From assembly GCA_047456295.1 (NCBI GenBank), contig CP179887.1, positions 45,944 to 109,943 on the forward strand: DNA of 64,000 nucleotides. Direction: 5' to 3'. The stretch comes from Candidatus Nealsonbacteria bacterium (GTDB lineage: Bacteria; Patescibacteriota; Minisyncoccia; Minisyncoccales; JANBVM01). The notes below the pieces were generated by a model. That model worked only from the letters and a program-made list of their open reading frames with translations, was not told where the DNA came from and searched no databases. This document shows positions 2,064 to 60,026 of the stretch, in pieces; within the stretch, counting starts at the first letter, position 1; every line of letters starts with the position of its first letter. Both the position numbers and the translations under genes were made by a program.

Positions 2064-3341
2064 TTAGGGAATTAAGTTCTTGGAAGCCCATAGATTTTCT
2101 CCCTCCAGCACATACAGCTTTTTATCAACAGGATTCCAGAATATTTCAGAATTTTCAAATTCAGCTAAATCAATAATGTTTATTCTGTCTCGGTTGTCAA
2201 TCTCAGCAATCTTTATTTTGTTTTCAGTGTTGAATATTAAATATCTTGACATTAACCAGAAGACATCCTTGATTTTTTCTGAGAGTCTGACCAAAAAGAT
2301 GCTCTCTCCCATTTTTCTTGTTGGCCGGGTTGTTTTTTCTTTGAGAAACAGAACCCGGATTTCAGAATCTGAACAATAGACTAATTTCTTGCTGTCAGAT
2401 GAAATCTTCAAGGAATTGATTCCTTCAAAAAACCTTTCAAATATTTTTGTTTCTTGATTCAATAAATAGAGGATTTCTCCTCCTTCTTCTAAAAAGATAA
2501 AGTCAGGAAAAACATATAATTCATATCCTGTTTCTTTTTTTAGTGGAAAGGATGCTGTTGTAACCTTTTCTTTTAGAGAAAAAGAAGCATCTGTTTTATA
2601 AAGATAACCCAGGTTATCCAGATAATAGATGTCATTATTAAATTCTTCATAGGTTATGATATTTTCAGGGAGGAGTGAGGATTCTTTGGTTTCTTTTAAA
2701 ACAGGAGGAATCTTGTCGATTTCCAGGGCAAAGCTCTTTAATTGTTCTGCTGTAATTACCTTAAAATATATTTCCTTTCCATCCTTGGAAAACTCCAAAT
2801 CAAAAAATTCAGCTCCTTTTTTCGAAACATCGCTTTCTTTCAAGAGGTGACTTTTTAGGTTTTTATTCAAATCATAGAGTTTCAGGGTCCAAAGATTTCC
2901 TTCTTTTTCTTCCCACACCATTCTTTTTCCGTCAGGAGAAAACCAGAGATTCTTTATTCCATTGGATAATAAACTGAAATCAGCATCTTTTGGAAAAAGG
3001 ATAATTTCTTTTGCTTCCACCACCTCTTTCTCTTTTACTTCTAAATTCTTTTCCCACTCAAAGTATCCCTCTTTCTTTACCTTGATATTGTATTTTTTGG
3101 GCAATAGCTCCTCAATAAGGATTGAGCCAAAGAAGAAATCTGTTTTTCTGGAGAACCCTCCATCTATATATATCTCTGCTTGCCTGGGTACAGCTTTTAA
3201 GAAGATACCGCCTGTCTGGGTTAGTTTCTTGTTTTCAAAATCAAATCTATATCCCTGAAAGTAAAGCACCACCAGAGGGGCTGACAAAAGGAATATGAAG
3301 ACAAAGATGAAAAATATGATTCTGCGGGTTTTTTTCTCCAT
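2064..3341 (-). CDS. Membrane-anchored PEGA-domain / beta-propeller-like protein
   Basis: N-terminal TM helix, a PEGA-like segment (AEIYIDG...YNIKVKKEGYFEWEKNLEV), then WFSPDGKRMVW TolB-like repeats. Confidence 0.55.
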   Translation of the reverse strand: MEKKTRRIIFFIFVFIFLLSAPLVVLYFQGYRFDFENKKLTQTGGIFLKAVPRQAEIYIDGGFSRKTDFFFGSILIEELLPKKYNIKVKKEGYFEWEKNLEVKEKEVVEAKEIILFPKDADFSLLSNGIKNLWFSPDGKRMVWEEKEGNLWTLKLYDLNKNLKSHLLKESDVSKKGAEFFDLEFSKDGKEIYFKVITAEQLKSFALEIDKIPPVLKETKESSLLPENIITYEEFNNDIYYLDNLGYLYKTDASFSLKEKVTTASFPLKKETGYELYVFPDFIFLEEGGEILYLLNQETKIFERFFEGINSLKISSDSKKLVYCSDSEIRVLFLKEKTTRPTRKMGESIFLVRLSEKIKDVFWLMSRYLIFNTENKIKIAEIDNRDRINIIDLAEFENSEIFWNPVDKKLYVLEGENLWASKNLIP

Positions 3342-3470
3342 TCTTAATATTATATTTATTTAATAGCTTGTCTGCAAGTTTTTGGGGTTTAACCTCATAC
3401 AAAGATTTGCAAACTTTAAGACTTTAAATTATACTTAAATTGGATTTCCATAATTTTTAAGCCCAAAGAT

Positions 3471-4469
3471 ATGAAAATTGGCGTTGATTTAGGAACCTGT
3501 AATTCGGTTGTTTTTATTCCCAAGAAAGGAGTGGTTTTACAAGAGCCATCAGTGGTAGCTGTAGCTTTGGCAGAGAATGAGATTTTAGCTGTGGGAAGAG
3601 AAGCCAAAGAAATGATGGGCAGGACCCCTGATACCATCAAGATATACCGTCCACTTAGAGACGGGGTGATTGCTGATTTCAGGGTTACCCAGGCCATGCT
3701 TAAATATTTTATTGATAAAGCCCTGGGTAGATTTCGACCTTTTAAGCCTGATTTAATGATTGGTATTCCAGCTGGCATTACCTCTACTGAGAGGAGAGCA
3801 GTAATTGAAGCTGGCATGAATGCCGGAGCCAGGGCAGTTTATTTGGCAAAAGAACCAATCCTGGCAGCTGTGGGAGCCAATGTTCCTATCAATAGCTGCT
3901 CGGGCAATATGATTCTTGATATTGGAGGAGGAACATCTGAAGCTGCAGTAATTTCTCTGGGAGGAATTGTCAATTTTCATTCCATAAGGGTAGCTGGAGA
4001 TAAAATGGACCTGGCTATCTCTGATTACATTAAGAAAAAATACAATTTAGCCATCGGACAACAAACAGCCGAAGAAATAAAAAAAAGAATTGGTACAGCC
4101 TTACCTGATAAAGAAGAGAAAAGGATGGATATCAAGGGAAGGGATATGGCTCTGGGTTTGCCAAAGAACATTAAGATTTCATCAAACGATGTCTGTATGG
4201 CCTTATCTGATATTCTTTCAGAGATTATTCAGATGATTAAAATAGTGCTTCGGGATACTCCTCCTGAGCTCTCAGCTGACATACTGAACAAGGGTATGGT
4301 AATGACAGGGGGAGCTTCTTTGCTGAATAAGTTTCCAGCATTAATTGCCAGATCAATCGGTGTTCCAGCTATCTTAGCTGATGATTCCATTTTATGCGTA
4401 GCAAAAGGAACAGGAATAATGCTGGAAAATCTTGATCTCTACAAGAAAACCATAATGAGTAAGAAATAA
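3471..4469 (+). CDS. mreB: MreB-like actin homologue (paralogue 1)
   Basis: IGVDLGTCNS phosphate-1 motif, DIGGGTSE phosphate-2 motif and MTGGASLL adenosine motif. Confidence 0.85.
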   Translation: MKIGVDLGTCNSVVFIPKKGVVLQEPSVVAVALAENEILAVGREAKEMMGRTPDTIKIYRPLRDGVIADFRVTQAMLKYFIDKALGRFRPFKPDLMIGIPAGITSTERRAVIEAGMNAGARAVYLAKEPILAAVGANVPINSCSGNMILDIGGGTSEAAVISLGGIVNFHSIRVAGDKMDLAISDYIKKKYNLAIGQQTAEEIKKRIGTALPDKEEKRMDIKGRDMALGLPKNIKISSNDVCMALSDILSEIIQMIKIVLRDTPPELSADILNKGMVMTGGASLLNKFPALIARSIGVPAILADDSILCVAKGTGIMLENLDLYKKTIMSKK

Positions 4470-14191: not shown

Positions 14192-14764
14192 ATGAAACAA
14201 AAAGAAGTATTATTTATTACGGGCAATAAAAGTAAATTAGCTGAGACAACTAAGATGGCTGAAAGATTCTCAGTAAAGATAGTAGGGCAAAAAGCTAATT
14301 TATTTGAGCCAATGGTATCCGATTCTACTAAAATCTTAATTGACAAAGCAAAGGATGCATATAAAAAGTTTGGTAAGCCTTTAATCGTTGATGATGCTGG
14401 TATTTACTTTGGAGCTTATCCTAATTTTCCTGGTGTATTCACGAAATTTATTATTAAGTTGCTTGGTTTTAATGGAATCATTAAGTTATTAGAAGGAAAA
14501 AGCAAAGACGCTTACTTCAAGTGCACAATTGGTTTTATTGACGAAAAGTTAGACCAGCCTCTTTTATTTGAAGGTATATCTAAGGGGAAAATAACCGAGA
14601 AAATTTCGATAAACTTCAATGGAAATTTCGAATTTAATAGTATTTTTATTCCTGAGGGAGAAAGTAAAACTTTTTCAGAAATGTCAATTGAGGAACGTAG
14701 TAAACACTGTCATAGAGATAGAGCGTTAGAGAAATTTTTAAGTTGGTATGTTAAAGAATATTAG
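14192..14764 (+). CDS. Ham1/RdgB-family non-canonical (d)NTP pyrophosphatase
   Basis: Family motifs ITGNKSKLAE, DDAGIYF, PGVFTKF and SKHCHRDRAL. Confidence 0.75.
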   Translation: MKQKEVLFITGNKSKLAETTKMAERFSVKIVGQKANLFEPMVSDSTKILIDKAKDAYKKFGKPLIVDDAGIYFGAYPNFPGVFTKFIIKLLGFNGIIKLLEGKSKDAYFKCTIGFIDEKLDQPLLFEGISKGKITEKISINFNGNFEFNSIFIPEGESKTFSEMSIEERSKHCHRDRALEKFLSWYVKEY

Positions 14765-14769
14765 TAAAA

Positions 14770-15396
14770 ATGAAATATATTAAAAAGGAAACAATTGGGG
14801 CGAGTTGGTTAAAAGCAGTAGAGGTGGTTATGGAAGAAGGAAACGATTTTTATGATCGCGATGTTAAGATAAAGGAGTTACTTGATCTTTTCATTGAGAT
14901 AAAAGATGCTCTTCTAATTGACGACGTGATAAAGAAACATGGAGATAAGTATATGATAGAACAACTAAAAATAGTTTTATTGGATACAAAACCAGGTGAG
15001 TGGGGGTGGAGTTATGGACAAAGGTTGTTTGGAGATAGTAACTATTTTAACCAAATAGAATTTATTGTAAATAAATTAAAGAGGAAACCGGAAACAAAAT
15101 CAGCTACCGTAACTTGTTTATTTCCTAAGGAGGATTTTCAGAAGGGAGCTCACATTCCATGTATTTGTCTTTTGGATTTTAAAATTAGAGATAATAGGTT
15201 GAACATGAGTGTTTGTTTAAGAAGCCAAGATATTGCTAAAAAGATGTATGGGGATGCGCTTGCTTTAGGTAAACTCATGGAAAAAGTAGCTAACGAATTA
15301 GATGTCTTGACGGGTAATCTTAAACTGTACATTATGTCGGCTCATATTTATGAAAACGAGTTTGAGAAAATGAGAAAAATAATAGGAAACTCTTAA
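14770..15396 (+). CDS. Short thymidylate-synthase-like protein 1 (Asp at the ThyA Asn177 position)
   Basis: IPC(131)ICLL...CLR(151)SQD(154)...YGD(162)...SAHIYENE. Spacing matches E. coli ThyA C146/R166/D169/N177/H207-Y209. Confidence 0.7.
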   Translation: MKYIKKETIGASWLKAVEVVMEEGNDFYDRDVKIKELLDLFIEIKDALLIDDVIKKHGDKYMIEQLKIVLLDTKPGEWGWSYGQRLFGDSNYFNQIEFIVNKLKRKPETKSATVTCLFPKEDFQKGAHIPCICLLDFKIRDNRLNMSVCLRSQDIAKKMYGDALALGKLMEKVANELDVLTGNLKLYIMSAHIYENEFEKMRKIIGNS

Positions 15397-15585
15397 AATA
15401 AATAAATTCACCATAAACATTCTGATAGTGATAAGCTTACTATAATAAGTTTATTTTTTTTATTGTTGAGCAATCCTGAAATAATATGGGTCTTGATAAT
15501 TCAAAGAAATACTGTATTATATGAATAGCTATAAGATATATTTCCAATAGCAAAGTTCTTTATAACTTAAAAGAGGTGAAATGAG

Positions 15586-16152
15586 ATAAAAGTTATATAT
15601 GTAGGAGGAGTTAAGGGTGTTGGTAAAACCTTTGTCCTTCGTGAGGTCTTTAGGCAACTATCTTTAGAAAAAGTGCCTTTTAAGAAGGCAAAAGTTGCAA
15701 AAGTTATGTTTGATCTATTAAAAAGATACGGTATGGTTGAGAAGTATGATGAGTTAGAAAATATTAGTGTCGAAATAAAAGATTGTATTCGCAAAGAATC
15801 TTTCAAAAAAATACTGAAAGATAAAAATGAAAATTTGATTTTCGATGGCCATTATTCAATATCGTCACAGTTTGGTTATGAGTATGGAATTCCATTGAAT
15901 TTTATAAAAGAAATTGATCACTTAGTATTATTATATAACAATGAAGATGTTGTTCGCAGGAGAAGGTTAGAAGATAAATCTAAAAAAAGAGAGACAAGTT
16001 TAGAGAAAGTAATAATAGACTTAATAATAGAGGAAGCGTTTGCTGAGTTTTATGCGAGATTACGGGGTAGAAAGTTAAAGAAGATAGAAACTAATAATAA
16101 AGCCAGTGTCAGTTTAAAAGATTTTATAAAGGAGGTGTTTGAAAGTGGTTAG
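15586..16152 (+). CDS. P-loop nucleoside/nucleotide kinase-like protein (archaeal Adk-like); apparent ATA start
   Basis: An in-frame Walker A (GGVKGVGKT) lies upstream of the GTG at 15673 given in the ORF track. Between the TGA at 15577 and the P-loop the only start-like codon is ATA at 15586, 7 nt after the SD AAGAGGTGA. Confidence 0.55.
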   Translation: MKVIYVGGVKGVGKTFVLREVFRQLSLEKVPFKKAKVAKVMFDLLKRYGMVEKYDELENISVEIKDCIRKESFKKILKDKNENLIFDGHYSISSQFGYEYGIPLNFIKEIDHLVLLYNNEDVVRRRRLEDKSKKRETSLEKVIIDLIIEEAFAEFYARLRGRKLKKIETNNKASVSLKDFIKEVFESG

Positions 16153-16789
16153 ATTAATAGAAGCAGATAATATTTCAGAAGCATGGTTAAAGGGATGTGA
16201 ATGTATTATAAATTACGGCTTTAGAACGAAAAGAAAAATCAAACTCCATAATTTGATTGCTGAGATTAAAAATATAACTCTAGATAAATACATAGATGAG
16301 CAATTTAGAAATTATATGAATCTAAGAATATTCAAGCGAACATTGGATATCGTTTCTTCAGATCAAAACCTCAATTCACATCCTAATTATTGGAGACGCT
16401 TGAAAGGAAAGGAAGAATTTAAGATAGACCAAGTGGCCCGCGTTATTTCCAGACTTAGAAAGCAGCCTCATTCAACCAAGCTTACCTTATGTATTTACAG
16501 CCCTAACGATTTCAAAAAGATGTATACACCTTGTATTTTATGTGCTGAATTAAGAGTGAATAAGAGGCGTCTTAATATGACCGCTTTTATCAGAAGTCAA
16601 GATTTCGCAAATAAAAGTTATGCTGATTATATAGGTTTATCATCTATTCTTAAACGAATTGGAGAGAATAGTAACATAAAACCAGGAGCAATTCTTACTC
16701 ATACTATAACCGCATTTATTGCCTATAAAGACCTAAGCCGAATGAAATCCTTTTTAAATATCATAAGGGAAAAGAAAATATCAAATTAG
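16139..16789 (+). CDS. Short thymidylate-synthase-like protein 2 (Asp at the Asn177 position; HxY motif lost)
   Basis: TPC(132)ILCA...IR(152)SQD(155)...YAD(163). The C-terminal motif is TAFIAY instead of xAHIY. Start is TTG 16139 or GTG 16145, after the SD AAGGAGGTG, and overlaps the kinase stop. Confidence 0.65.
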   Translation: MKVVRLIEADNISEAWLKGCECIINYGFRTKRKIKLHNLIAEIKNITLDKYIDEQFRNYMNLRIFKRTLDIVSSDQNLNSHPNYWRRLKGKEEFKIDQVARVISRLRKQPHSTKLTLCIYSPNDFKKMYTPCILCAELRVNKRRLNMTAFIRSQDFANKSYADYIGLSSILKRIGENSNIKPGAILTHTITAFIAYKDLSRMKSFLNIIREKKISN

Positions 16790-56160: not shown

Positions 56161-56577
56161 ATGACAAGAAGAATTGCTATTTTTGCCCCTTCTGGAGTTG
56201 GTAAATCAACACTAATTAAGATTGCCTTAAAACAAGGGATAAAGGCTTATGATTTTGAAGATTTCTCTTCTCAAGAAAGAATAAAAAAAGCTCAAGAAAT
56301 TCTCAAGAAGGATTTTAATGACATTGTATTGTTTAATGCGGGAGATTTACAAACTAAAGATTTCCCGTTTGATGTTGAACTGGTATTGCTTTTACCTCCT
56401 AAAGATATTTATTTGAAGCGTTTAAAAAAGCGCGACAAATTAAATCCAGAGAAAAAAGGCCAACAAGGGAATATGAAGTATGAGATATTTTTTTAAAAAA
56501 AGAACATTTTTCATAGAATTATTAAAGATACAGGAACAGCGGATGAAATTTTAGATAAGATATTAAAAAGTTTATGA
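56161..56577 (+). pseudogene. P-loop kinase-like gene, frameshifted/decayed copy of 57269-57685
   Basis: The first 95 aa align with the paralogue (RRIAIFxPxGVGKSTLIK). The frame breaks after NPEKKGQQ near an A/T homopolymer. The C-terminal FHRIIKDTGTADEILDKILKSL* resumes in another frame and ends in ATGA overlap with ppa. Confidence 0.6.
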
Positions 56578-57044
56578 ACATAAAAGTTTTTATTGAGAAT
56601 AAAGCAGGGTCTAATCAAAAAAATATCTATGATGAAAAAACCTTGCAATATAAGAAAACTGTAATAATCTCAAGGAAATATCCATATCCCTATGGTTTCG
56701 TTTTGAATACCACAAGTGGGGATGGTGATAATGTAGATTGTTTTGTGTTAACAAACAAAAAACTTAAAACTGGTGAAATCGTTGAGTGTAAACCTATTGC
56801 CATGATGGAGCAAATAGAGTCTTATTCTGCAGAGCCAGGAATAGAGGAAGAAGACCACAATGTCTTAGCTGTTTTAGAGGGTGAAAGTTTTGAAATAGAC
56901 GATATATTAAAGAATAAACTGTCTGAATTTGTTTCACATGCCTTTGACCATTTACCAGATAAAAAAGTTAAAGTAGGAAATTTCTTAGATGAAAAAAAGA
57001 CTATAGAGTATATAGAAAAATGTAGAGATGCTATTAATCTTTAA
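56574..57044 (+). CDS. ppa: Family I inorganic pyrophosphatase
   Basis: YPYPYGFVLNTTSGDGDNVDCFVL active-site motif. Confidence 0.8.
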   Translation: MNIKVFIENKAGSNQKNIYDEKTLQYKKTVIISRKYPYPYGFVLNTTSGDGDNVDCFVLTNKKLKTGEIVECKPIAMMEQIESYSAEPGIEEEDHNVLAVLEGESFEIDDILKNKLSEFVSHAFDHLPDKKVKVGNFLDEKKTIEYIEKCRDAINL

Positions 57045-57158
57045 ATTCAGGTTCGAACATTATCCTATTAAATTAGGTTAATCCTTGAAATAGTCTTTAA
57101 ATCTCTAAGCTTTTTCTCAATTTCTATCCAATCAATAGTTCTAAATTGGTAAATTTTC

Positions 57159-57268
57159 CCAAAACCAAGTTCTAATATTGTACCACCCCCGGAGCAGGCT
57201 AGTGCTCGGTTCAAGTGACCGAGACGCATCAAATCGCCTTATAGGCGGTTTTTTGGTAAAATCGAAAT
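57159..57268 (+). repeat. Junction module J5
   Basis: CCCAAAACCAAGTTCTAAT...CCCCCGGAGCA, then hairpin CTCGGT-TCAAGTG-ACCGAG, then AAATCGCCTTATAGGCGGTTTTTTGGTAAAAT-CGAAAT-ATG. Confidence 0.7.
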
Positions 57269-57685
57269 ATGAAAAGAAGAATTGCCATCTTTGGTCCTCC
57301 TGGTGTTGGTAAGTCAACCCTAATTAAGCTCGCTATAAAAAGAGGAATAAAGGCCTTTGATTTCGAAGATTTTCCTGAGGAAGAAACATTAAGGCGAGTC
57401 AAAGAAATCTTCAAAAAAGTTCCTGATGACATTGTATTGTATGGTGCGGCTGGCTTACAGACTTATGATTTCCCACAGGATGTAGAACTGGTGTTGGTTC
57501 TGCCACCTAAAGATATTTATTTAGAGCGTATAAAGGAGCGGGATACAGTAAATCCAGCTAAAGTAGGCCAGAACCATTTGGAATGGTATGATGGCTATAC
57601 AAGTACTAAGAATCGTTATCATAAAGTTATTAGTGAGACAGGAAGTCCCAATGAAGTTTTAGATAAAATATTAGAAGATTTATGA
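57269..57685 (+). CDS. Small P-loop kinase-like protein (138 aa)
   Basis: Walker A GPPGVGKST. ATGA overlap with the downstream S66 peptidase gene. Confidence 0.6.
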   Translation: MKRRIAIFGPPGVGKSTLIKLAIKRGIKAFDFEDFPEEETLRRVKEIFKKVPDDIVLYGAAGLQTYDFPQDVELVLVLPPKDIYLERIKERDTVNPAKVGQNHLEWYDGYTSTKNRYHKVISETGSPNEVLDKILEDL

Positions 57686-58653: not shown

Positions 58654-58832
58654 TTATGGACAAAATGAAACAAGAAAGCACGGTCAATTTGATTATATAA
58701 AAAGCATTGGATGCTACCTAGACAGTGTGTGAACCGACATCAATATCCTTGTATAGTTCAAGAACGCGTACCGATGCAGCAAGCGGAAGCGATTGAAATT
58801 TTAAAGACTATTTTATCTAAAGACCATTAAAA

Positions 58833-58989
58833 CAGGTTCTAACCTCGTCCAGCCCCCGGAGTCAGCTTGTGCTCGGTTCGAGGGACCGAGACACTTTCGG
58901 TTCGAATCCTAACCCCACAGATGGTAAAATCAAGCTTGAAAGAAGCTTGCTTTTTTATTAAATTTAGGGAAAGGTTAAAATAGTGACTT
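58833..58989 (+). repeat. Composite junction region (two tRNA-3'-like segments, shared hairpin, terminator, -10 box)
   Basis: CAGGTTCTAACCTCGTCCAGCCCCCGGAG; CTCGGT-TCGAGGG-ACCGAG; GGTTCGAATCCTAACCCCACA; TGGTAAAATC; CAAGCTT-GAAAG-AAGCTTG followed by T6; TAAAAT 8 nt before the ATG at 58990. Confidence 0.6.
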
Positions 58990-59925
58990 ATGGAGATAAA
59001 AAACACAAAACCATCTTTTCGTTGTGTGTTACATGGAAGTTTCCGCAAATACTGGGATTTAATTAAAAGAACACATCGTATCTTTACTGAAGCCGGTATA
59101 GAAGTTTTGGCGCCTCGTGAAACAGAAATAACTTCTTCTACAGAAGGCTTCGCATTTTTAGAAGGTGAAGAAGATAAAGACCCTCGGATGGTTGAGTTGC
59201 TATATCTGCATAATCTTAAACGATTAGGGGAAAACGGTTTTAGTTATTTTGTAGATCCAGAAGGATACATAGGCAAAAGTGCATCTTATGAACTTGGCAT
59301 TGCACAAGTTACAAATATAAGGTGCTTCTTCTTCGATACCCCAAGGGACCACCCAGCTTATATTCATAGAAATGCTATTTGGAAACCTGAAAACCTCACT
59401 ACATTTATACGAGAGAAAGGAAGATTACCTGAGCCTCAAGTAGAGCCGGACAAACAAAAGATTCATAAGCTTTGGGAAGATTTAATGGTACCTGGTTCTG
59501 TAGTAGCTGCGGGAGGCATTATTGAGTATGACTCTGATAAAAAAGAGAAAGAAATTCTTTTAGTAAAGACTCATAAGTGGAAAGGACGATATTCGATTGT
59601 GGGGGGTAAGCTTCGCAGAAATGAAAGACTTGAAGATGCTTTACTTAGAGAAGTTAAAGAAGAAACAGGATTGGTAGGAAGGGTTGGAGAACATCTTTGC
59701 ACTTTTGACCAGATAAAAAACTCTGGTTATTACTTGCCTGGAATACAACATATTTTTGTTGATAATGTAGTTCATGTTAGAAGTAAACACGTTCGTTTGA
59801 ATGAAGAAGCAGAAGATTATATTTGGATACCAGCACGAATTGCGCTTCGTGAACTTTCAATAGAACCAAATGCTCGTCATACACTTCAATTATATGCTGA
59901 CAGCTTTTCTGTGTTAAGTAACTGA
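58990..59925 (+). CDS. Fusion protein: nucleoside 2-deoxyribosyltransferase/DNPH1-like N-domain plus Nudix hydrolase C-domain
   Basis: N-domain GKSASYELGIA resembles the NDT-family catalytic Glu motif. C-domain has the Nudix box GGKLRRNERLEDALLREVKEETGL. Confidence 0.6.
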   Translation: MEIKNTKPSFRCVLHGSFRKYWDLIKRTHRIFTEAGIEVLAPRETEITSSTEGFAFLEGEEDKDPRMVELLYLHNLKRLGENGFSYFVDPEGYIGKSASYELGIAQVTNIRCFFFDTPRDHPAYIHRNAIWKPENLTTFIREKGRLPEPQVEPDKQKIHKLWEDLMVPGSVVAAGGIIEYDSDKKEKEILLVKTHKWKGRYSIVGGKLRRNERLEDALLREVKEETGLVGRVGEHLCTFDQIKNSGYYLPGIQHIFVDNVVHVRSKHVRLNEEAEDYIWIPARIALRELSIEPNARHTLQLYADSFSVLSN

Positions 59926-59934
59926 TTTATAAGA

Positions 59935-60026
59935 CAGGTTCTAAAATCGTTCGTCCTTCGGAGCTAAAAAATCGCTAAATAGGCGATTTTTTGATAAAAT
60001 AAACAATATAAGTAAAAAATATTAAT
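59935..60026 (+). repeat. Junction module J6
   Basis: CAGGTTCTAAAATCGTTCGTCCTTCGGAGC followed by AAATCGCTAAATAGGCGATTTTTTGATAAAAT. Confidence 0.65.

Follow-up and report, generated by a model that had tools for sequence, protein, structure and literature searches.

A Nudix-fused branch of the nucleoside deoxyribosyltransferase superfamily conserved in CPR bacteria and its predicted role in dismantling nucleotides

Introduction

In DNPH1 (Rcl), the catalytic triad is composed of Y24, D80 and E104, and S98 and S128' act as phosphate ligands (PMC10603095). R30 of this enzyme corresponds to R23 of MilB, a phosphate binder; a phosphate-binding serine lies ahead of the catalytic glutamate in both proteins (S98 in the human enzyme, S97 in MilB), and F17 of MilB replaces the triad tyrosine, leading to a preference for ribose (PMC10603095). 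A 2026 report on phages with Z genomes (PMC12884076) describes DmtZ as an NDT-family enzyme that releases adenine from dAMP by hydrolysis and is also able to transfer dR5P; the Dut-like DutZ hydrolyses dATP and dGTP, and the two occur as separate proteins or as one fusion protein, depending on the phage.

We searched the literature for nucleoside deoxyribosyltransferase (NDT) domains fused to Nudix or MazG domains and for NDT proteins of CPR bacteria, and found nothing specific. The ultra-small CPR bacteria (Patescibacteria) have no de novo route to nucleotides and depend on those that they scavenge. How their nucleotide pools are sanitized and recycled is poorly known. Here, we analysed a gene in a window of 64,000 nucleotides of a Candidatus Nealsonbacteria bacterium, which had been predicted to encode an NDT/DNPH1-like domain fused to a Nudix hydrolase. 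Positions refer to this window unless a locus label precedes them.

Results

A conserved two-domain gene

The gene is a complete open reading frame in the ORF list, running from ATG to stop on the forward (+) strand (58990..59925) and encoding 311 amino acids. A second, independent public contig carries an identical protein along with the same downstream genes. Full-length orthologs with 54-77% identity were found in 65 reference genomes at species level, which shows the gene to be genuine and conserved and excludes a chance ORF. Almost all of these genomes are labelled Patescibacteria/CPR, covering Saccharibacteria, Paceibacteria, Parcubacteria lineages, WWE3, Daviesbacteria and Uhrbacteria, and a few records carry, as deposited, the labels 'Gammaproteobacteria', 'Binatia' or 'bacterium'. 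In public databases the gene has no name, is called 'hypothetical' or bears a generic Nudix label, and the names of its relatives are likewise absent or generic.

The product is composed of an NDT-superfamily domain, a conserved linker and a Nudix domain. The N-terminal alpha/beta domain (N-domain) with the NDT/DNPH1 fold covers residues ~10-145 (59017..59424, + strand); the interdomain segment, which contains a IHKLWEDLMVPGSVVA stretch conserved in the alignments, covers residues ~146-170 (59425..59499, +); and the Nudix hydrolase domain, located by PF00293, PDB sequence matches and Foldseek, covers residues ~171-300 (59500..59889, +). In the full-length structural model, pLDDT was low at residues 151-171, so that the relative orientation of the N-domain and the Nudix domain is not fixed by the model. 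The two sequence features named in the original prediction, GKSASYELGIA and a complete Nudix box, are both present in the product. The N-domain and the Nudix half are constrained to an equal degree: among 60 full-length orthologs of different species, 38% of the positions in the N-domain and 43% of those in the Nudix half were at least 90% identical, and H15-G16-S17, E101, R220, E224 and E225 were invariant.

Some orthologs are interrupted. One has a TAG at codon 51 (L002 5824-6729) and another a stop near codon 47 (L004 ~2930-3854), while frameshifts fall inside the Nudix half in L003 (10001-10930) and also in L067. The gene calls P0048, P0049, P0051 and P0053 start at the internal Met67 as a result of such interruptions. 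Programmed readthrough or recoding was rejected, as the stops lie at different codons and the neighbouring genes are intact under the standard code. The in-frame stops, which fall in the variable hairpin region, are probably sporadic decay or sequencing or assembly errors, odd as their recurrence is.

The N-domain belongs to the NDT superfamily

Residues 1-160 alone gave no match in Pfam, NCBIfam, PHROGs or PADLOC; the window protein did not match PF05014 in a Pfam scan even at E<=10; and in the PDB, neither phmmer with the N-domain nor a profile built from 20 close homologs found anything. A word-indexed search retrieved only 57 clusters, mostly from Patescibacteria/CPR, and the complete sequences among them had the same N-domain plus Nudix architecture. 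The first lead was the most distant of the 57, P0057, which matched PF05014 weakly (E 3.9e-4, 21 bits; cutoff 28.8) and has a MazG-like C-terminus in place of the Nudix domain. An exhaustive HMMER search with the N-domain profile, with 1.84 billion representatives as target, recovered 1201 proteins at E<=1e-3, of which 651 passed E<=1e-10. Its top match, P0058, a repetitive protein of 7573 aa with 42 weak stretches, was dropped as spurious. The branch amounts to about 1200 clusters at 50% identity, which are largely unnamed in public databases. Individual Pfam scans of 140 representatives showed that 42 matched PF05014 (best E 1.2e-6). The tie of the N-domain to this family is thus transitive, since it runs through relatives and the window protein itself has no match.

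A profile of the 140 sequences gave an insignificant match in the PDB (E 0.8) on the YELGRA motif of Rcl. We used the sequences of rat Rcl and L. leichmannii NDT (LlNDT), both exact PDB matches, for profile comparison by hhalign. A narrow profile against either single sequence was insignificant, and only a broad profile of 175 N-domain sequences reached significance, with an E of 3e-5 against Rcl. The N-domain has a flavodoxin-like alpha/beta fold and superposes on solved NDT, DNPH1 and MilB structures; its best structural matches are true transferases (6evs, 7o62, 1s2d and 1f8x).

Active-site residues of the N-domain

Residues were mapped onto Rcl and LlNDT by MAFFT addition to the family alignment, and conservation was counted in 138 relatives. 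GKSASYELGIA (residues 95-105, 59272-59304) had been noted to resemble the catalytic-Glu motif, and the alignments bear this out: E101 was invariant in 138/138 relatives and in all 60 orthologs, and aligned with Rcl E93 and LlNDT E98. An x-E-x-G catalytic Glu motif accordingly follows the central strand, and E101 is predicted to be the nucleophile. By conservation and alignment, the catalytic loop is G92-Y-I-G95-K-S97-A-S-Y-E101-L-G103-I-A105 (59263..59304, +). Position 97 was S or T in 133/138 relatives and stands four residues before the glutamate in a loop two residues longer, versus six before it in DNPH1; S97 is a candidate phosphate ligand.

Conservation and the Rcl alignment also defined the motif H15-G16-S17-F18-R19-K20 at the end of strand beta1 (59032..59049, +). 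G16 was found in 136/138 relatives and S17 in all 138; position 18 was F or Y, R19 was present in 92/138 (N or Q in 24 more), and position 20 was mostly kept as K or R. G16-S17-F18-R19 aligned residue for residue with G16-S17-I18-R19 of Rcl, where LlNDT has A-G-W-F, and a G-S-x-R loop of the DNPH1/MilB type (human R30, MilB R23) is therefore present after beta1. HGSFRK is a putative 5'-phosphate and base-contact loop, the counterpart of G-S-I-R in DNPH1 and of R23 in MilB.

The triad tyrosine (Rcl Y13, LlNDT Y7) aligned with V13, a position at which V (57), T (31) and S (16) were commonest among the 138 relatives, and the triad aspartate (Rcl D69, LlNDT D72) aligned with Y72, where H (51), V (24) and F (20) were commonest. 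Three residues, or one helical turn, upstream of the latter lies E69 of helix alpha3 (59194..59196, +), which was Glu or Gln in 134/138 relatives in the conservation table and alignment. In the NDT-like effector of retron Ec86, a conserved glutamate, E65, precedes D69 by four residues, an arrangement to which E69/Y72 may be analogous. Other conserved positions were P42 (137 of 138), F54 (131), D/E60 (127), N89, P90, G92, Y93, G95 (137), G103 and D/E120. Judged by alignment, the window protein keeps the nucleophile and a nucleotide-type GSxR loop; of the canonical triad it lacks the tyrosine and appears to lack the aspartate. From these sequence comparisons we conclude that the N-domain is a distinct branch of the NDT superfamily, nearer in its features to nucleotide hydrolases than to nucleoside transferases, and that it is no ortholog of DNPH1 or MilB.

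The Nudix half

Pfam NUDIX (PF00293) matched residues 176-298 with an E of 4e-13 (49.9 bits; cutoff 21.1). The box GX5EX7REUXEEXGU was read from G206 to L228 (59605..59673, +) as G206-KLRRN-E212-RLEDALL-R220-E221-V-K-E224-E225-T-G-L228, in which, beside the invariant R220, E224 and E225, E221 was at least 90% conserved in the 60 orthologs. Downstream of the box, the orthologs share a conserved TFDQIxxSGYY motif peculiar to the fusion family. Among PDB sequences, NudI was the best match (E 7e-7), followed by uncharacterised MutT/Nudix proteins and DIPPs, and Foldseek returned MutT1 (E 8.6e-11), Ap4A hydrolase, Rv2985, NudI, CTP pyrophosphohydrolase, MutT2 and RppH. The Nudix half looks like an NTP- or ApnA-type Nudix, and because all NCBIfam equivalogs scored far below cutoff (best NudI, 30.2 bits against 95), no substrate is transferable by homology.

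Coupling of the N-domain family to NTP pyrophosphatases

Pfam scans of the 140 representatives also detected MazG in 14, MazG-like in 3, NUDIX in 11 and NTPase_I-T (DUF84) in 1, with minor matches to SMEK_N (2), DUF4406 (1) and CAP12/Pycsar TIR (CAP12-PCTIR_TIR; 1). Fusion partners of the N-domain family come from three NTP pyrophosphatase/NTPase families of unrelated structure, MazG, Nudix and DUF84, and both domain orders were found: Nudix-NDTlike in P0164 and DUF84-NDTlike in P0131, NDTlike-MazG in P0118 and P0105. This Rosetta-stone pattern is the key evidence for the two-step enzyme proposed below.

Stand-alone relatives were found in similar company. On three contigs, the gene for P0113 (136 aa) follows a MazG gene of 101 aa on the same strand after a gap of 10 bp, and this pair is a split form of the fusion. 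At these loci (L071 3686-4411, also L072 and L073), a divergent upstream gene encodes 379 aa with AAA_28 and weak thymidylate-kinase matches. P0123 ends a co-directional TGT-MazG-Nudix-NDTlike string (L079 725-3423, also L080), whose last two frames, Nudix and NDT-like, share 11 nt. TGT is here the queuine/archaeosine tRNA-ribosyltransferase family, and the string hints that some members of the N-domain family process 7-deazaguanine-type nucleotides. The neighbourhoods of two further stand-alone relatives were uninformative.

The SMEK_N fusions, P0103 (confirmed individually) and P0151, are about 760 aa long. Part of the N-domain family appears to have been recruited into conflict/defence-type proteins, unlike the housekeeping CPR fusion.

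Gene neighbourhood and flanking elements

The target is flanked by an LD-carboxypeptidase gene on one side and by PCMT, YceG and DJ-1 genes on the other. An inorganic pyrophosphatase (PPase) gene and a gene for a 138-aa P-loop kinase-like protein (56574-57685) lie 1.3-2.4 kb upstream on the same strand. The PPase could clear PPi produced by a Nudix NTPase, but its proximity is probably coincidental because the orthologs do not share this arrangement. Near the 65 orthologs, neither the neighbours seen in the window nor the TS, Ham1 and kinase cluster discussed below recurred, and de novo clustering of neighbours gave nothing but housekeeping genes and, in 8-11/65 loci, a second, stand-alone Nudix gene. 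With no conserved neighbours other than these, the target is a solitary, vertically conserved housekeeping gene and part of no island or defence locus. The stand-alone Nudix gene is MutT-like, encodes about 130-155 aa and directly adjoins the fusion (L004 3895-4290, L005 1450-1899, and 8-11 of L006-L070); among the recurrent neighbours it alone is suggestive of function, and it occurs in a minority of CPR genomes.

A consensus scan placed a promoter-like site, TTGAAA-17-TAAATT, at 58936..58964 (+), 26 nt before the start codon; it is a consensus match only, and the number of such sites in the region was not above shuffle expectation. Downstream of the stop, inverted repeat I11 forms a terminator-like hairpin, AAAAAATCGC/GCGATTTTTT, followed by a T run (59966..59992, +). 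It was not listed by the terminator scan, and similar hairpins also follow two upstream genes.

A ~70-nt repeated intergenic element, ACAGGTTCTAA...CCCCCGGAG...GTGCTCGGTTC[GA]AG[GT]GACCGAGAC, occurs at 57161-57229, 58827-58896 and 59931-59964, in two full copies (nhmmer E ~1e-21) and a third, partial one. Each copy lies just past the stop of a + strand gene (PPase, LD-carboxypeptidase and the target) with a terminator-like hairpin downstream. The element had no Rfam match and was not found beside the orthologs; it may represent a small repeat element or an RNA motif of 3'-UTRs. An imperfect direct repeat of 34 nt lies on both sides of the target, and the upstream spacer has a T-loop-like string, GGTTCGAATCC. 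A mobile element, tRNA-targeted integration and an att site were considered and rejected: Rfam gave nothing, ARAGORN gave only a non-credible tRNA at a relaxed threshold, and the direct repeat is the 3'-UTR-type element, which also follows the PPase gene.

Discussion

A predicted two-step hydrolase

Our preferred reading, which we hold with slightly better than even confidence, is that the gene product is a bifunctional enzyme that dismantles nucleotides in two hydrolytic steps. The C-terminal Nudix domain would cleave the pyrophosphate bond of an NTP or a related NDP-X to give a nucleoside 5'-monophosphate. As read from its residues, this domain is catalytically intact; that it produces NMP or dNMP, and the class of its substrate, are what we infer. 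The N-domain would then take the NMP or dNMP through the GSFRK loop and S97, E101 would attack C1' to release the free base, and water would convert the covalent pentosyl-5-phosphate-enzyme intermediate to ribose- or deoxyribose-5-phosphate, as in DNPH1, MilB and DmtZ. The N-domain has the NDT fold with an invariant glutamate at the nucleophile position, and its family is recurrently linked to NTP pyrophosphatases by fusion or operon; E101 presumably cleaves the glycosidic bond, and R19, K20 and S97 presumably bind the 5'-phosphate. Because a valine stands in place of the 2'-OH-excluding tyrosine of DNPH1, and the family mostly has V, T or S there, ribonucleotides may also be accepted, by analogy with MilB. 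The role is most likely sanitation of the pool and/or salvage of base and pentose phosphate, the nucleotide being possibly non-canonical.

Alternative explanations

Four other readings were weighed against this one. The N-domain might be a transferase that swaps the base of the Nudix-made nucleotide, moving (deoxy)ribose-5-phosphate or deoxyribosyl in a salvage or remodelling route. Engineered phosphodeoxyribosyltransferases offer a likeness, as does DmtZ, whose fold supports both hydrolysis and the transfer of dR5P; in the same report, a conserved proline is said to keep water from the active site of transferases (PMC12884076). The near-invariant P42 is, by analogy, a possible counterpart of this water-shielding proline, and the best structural matches of the domain are true transferases. 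CPR bacteria rely on salvage, a dependence that would also suit such a route. We nevertheless consider a transferase unlikely: the GS[FI]R loop is common to the hydrolases DNPH1 and MilB and not found in LlNDT, the Asp/Asn that holds the 5'-OH in nucleoside transferases is not identifiable in the N-domain, a pyrophosphatase fusion suits a degradative order of reactions, and no acceptor base is evident. It is distinctly unlikely that the protein handles NAD+ or ADP-ribose (ADPR), with a TIR-type NAD(P) glycohydrolase or ADPR binder at the N-terminus and a Nudix ADPR pyrophosphatase yielding AMP and ribose-5-phosphate. The profile links all lead to PF05014 and none to TIR families, a single TIR match (CAP12-PCTIR_TIR, in one protein) was found among 140 relatives, and the window protein had neither a TIR profile match nor TIR proteins as best structural neighbours. 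Moreover, MazG and DUF84, which recur as partners, have NTPs and not ADPR as substrates, the top Nudix neighbours are MutT1, Ap4A hydrolase and NudI, and the JGI label is a generic COG name. A non-catalytic N-domain that senses a ligand or oligomerises, and so regulates or scaffolds the Nudix domain, would fit the loss of the triad Tyr and Asp, the dimers and hexamers formed by NDT folds, and the fact that defence systems employ related domains (SLOG, TIR, NDT-like) for sensing or to scaffold filaments, as in the Ec86 effector. This seems very improbable, since the nucleophile Glu and the G-S motif are invariant in 138 very diverse relatives, the conserved polar set R19, K20, D60, E/Q69, N89, S/T97 and D120 is typical of an active site, and stand-alone relatives of 135 aa have no domain to regulate.

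The original prediction also drew a conceptual link to thymidylate synthase (TS)-like genes at 14.8-16.8 kb. The two ORFs (14770-15396 and 16139-16789) are paralogs with 26% identity; both match PF00303, and methanogen-type thymidylate synthase TIGR03283 below cutoff. They belong to a cluster (14192-16789) of XTP/dITP diphosphatase (Ham1), TS-like, archaeal-type adenylate-kinase-like (AAA_17) and TS-like genes, which looks like a nucleotide-modification or synthesis module. With these paralogs in the same window beside a diphosphatase and a kinase-like gene, and with MilB and DNPH1 known to act on hydroxymethyl-pyrimidine nucleotides (PMC10603095), the target could be a clean-up partner that destroys hydroxymethylated or modified pyrimidine nucleotides, like MilB with MilA; this would be a subset of the two-step hydrolase. 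We give it only a slim chance. The loci are 42 kb apart without conserved synteny, tblastn found no TS-like sequence within +/-10 kb of any of the 65 orthologs, and hence no TS-like hydroxymethylase near the glycosidase as in MilA/MilB-type pairing, and the TS-like ORFs best match the methanogen-type thymidylate synthase. Of the earlier interpretation, the NDT/DNPH1-like plus Nudix fusion stands and the tie to the TS-like genes is unsupported.

Significance

Beyond the preferred two-step hydrolase, a more far-reaching reading is possible and, taken as a whole, rather doubtful: the N-domain would be a widespread NDT-superfamily branch dedicated to acting after an NTP pyrophosphatase, with a non-canonical active site (G-S-F-R-K, E/Q69 and E101 instead of the triad Tyr/Asp), and the CPR fusion would be a core one-protein pathway that starts from a triphosphate and frees one particular base, salvageable or toxic. 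Candidate bases are of the 7-deazaguanine/queuine type, as hinted by the TGT-MazG-Nudix-NDTlike operon, or a modified pyrimidine. If this were true, the released pentose-5-phosphate would feed central metabolism in organisms without de novo nucleotide synthesis.

The gene is kept in at least 65 CPR species, and recognition of its N-domain leads to a concrete two-step reaction and to a large unannotated branch of the NDT superfamily. The repeated joining of this branch to NTP pyrophosphatases of three different folds suggests that 'pyrophosphatase plus nucleotide N-glycosidase' is a general metabolic module and not a peculiarity of Z-genome phages. NDT-family enzymes are biocatalysts for the synthesis of nucleoside and nucleotide analogues, and a branch with another active-site make-up and possible ribonucleotide tolerance could serve this purpose. 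The fold, the chemistry and the pyrophosphatase plus N-glycosidase logic are already known; what is new is the branch itself, with its non-canonical triad, its CPR-wide Nudix fusion and a domain that Pfam and NCBIfam do not recognise in the window protein.

Comparison with known systems

Compared with DNPH1/Rcl, the 2'-deoxynucleoside 5'-phosphate N-hydrolase (2khz, 4fyh, 4p5e), the target is Nudix-fused and shows no significant direct sequence match; in the alignment, Val and Tyr stand in place of the triad Tyr and Asp, a conserved Glu/Gln69 lies one helical turn upstream, and the catalytic loop is 2 residues longer. The N-domain family also has a beta-hairpin at residues 47-57 that carries F54 (131/138), and the helical extension with Ser128' is not identifiable in it. 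The CMP/hydroxymethyl-CMP N-glycosidases MilB/BlsM (4ohr) belong to an antibiotic cluster with the TS-like hydroxymethylase MilA, a neighbour absent here, and MilB is not fused to a pyrophosphatase, whereas the target is. True NDTs (LlNDT 1f8x, BpNDT 6evs, 7o62; PF05014) act on nucleosides with a Y/D/E triad and Asp/Asn ligands of the 5'-OH, and have A-G-W-F where the N-domain family has G-S-F-R. With NTP-type Nudix enzymes (NudI, MutT1, MutT2, Ap4A hydrolases), the target shares the Nudix fold and a complete box at ~22-25% identity.

The closest functional precedent is DmtZ/DutZ of Z-genome phages, in which an NDT-family N-glycosidase stands beside or is fused with a dNTP pyrophosphatase (PMC12884076). 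In that account, DmtZ retains Tyr6/Asn77/Glu103, whereas the target lacks the triad Tyr; its partner has a Dut-like trimeric dUTPase fold and not a Nudix fold; and it is a phage enzyme for A-to-Z genome replacement, where the target is a chromosomal CPR housekeeping gene. What the two systems would have in common is the logic from NTP through NMP to base plus pentose-5-phosphate, and by this analogy DmtZ/DutZ provides a partial experimental precedent for a two-step enzyme.
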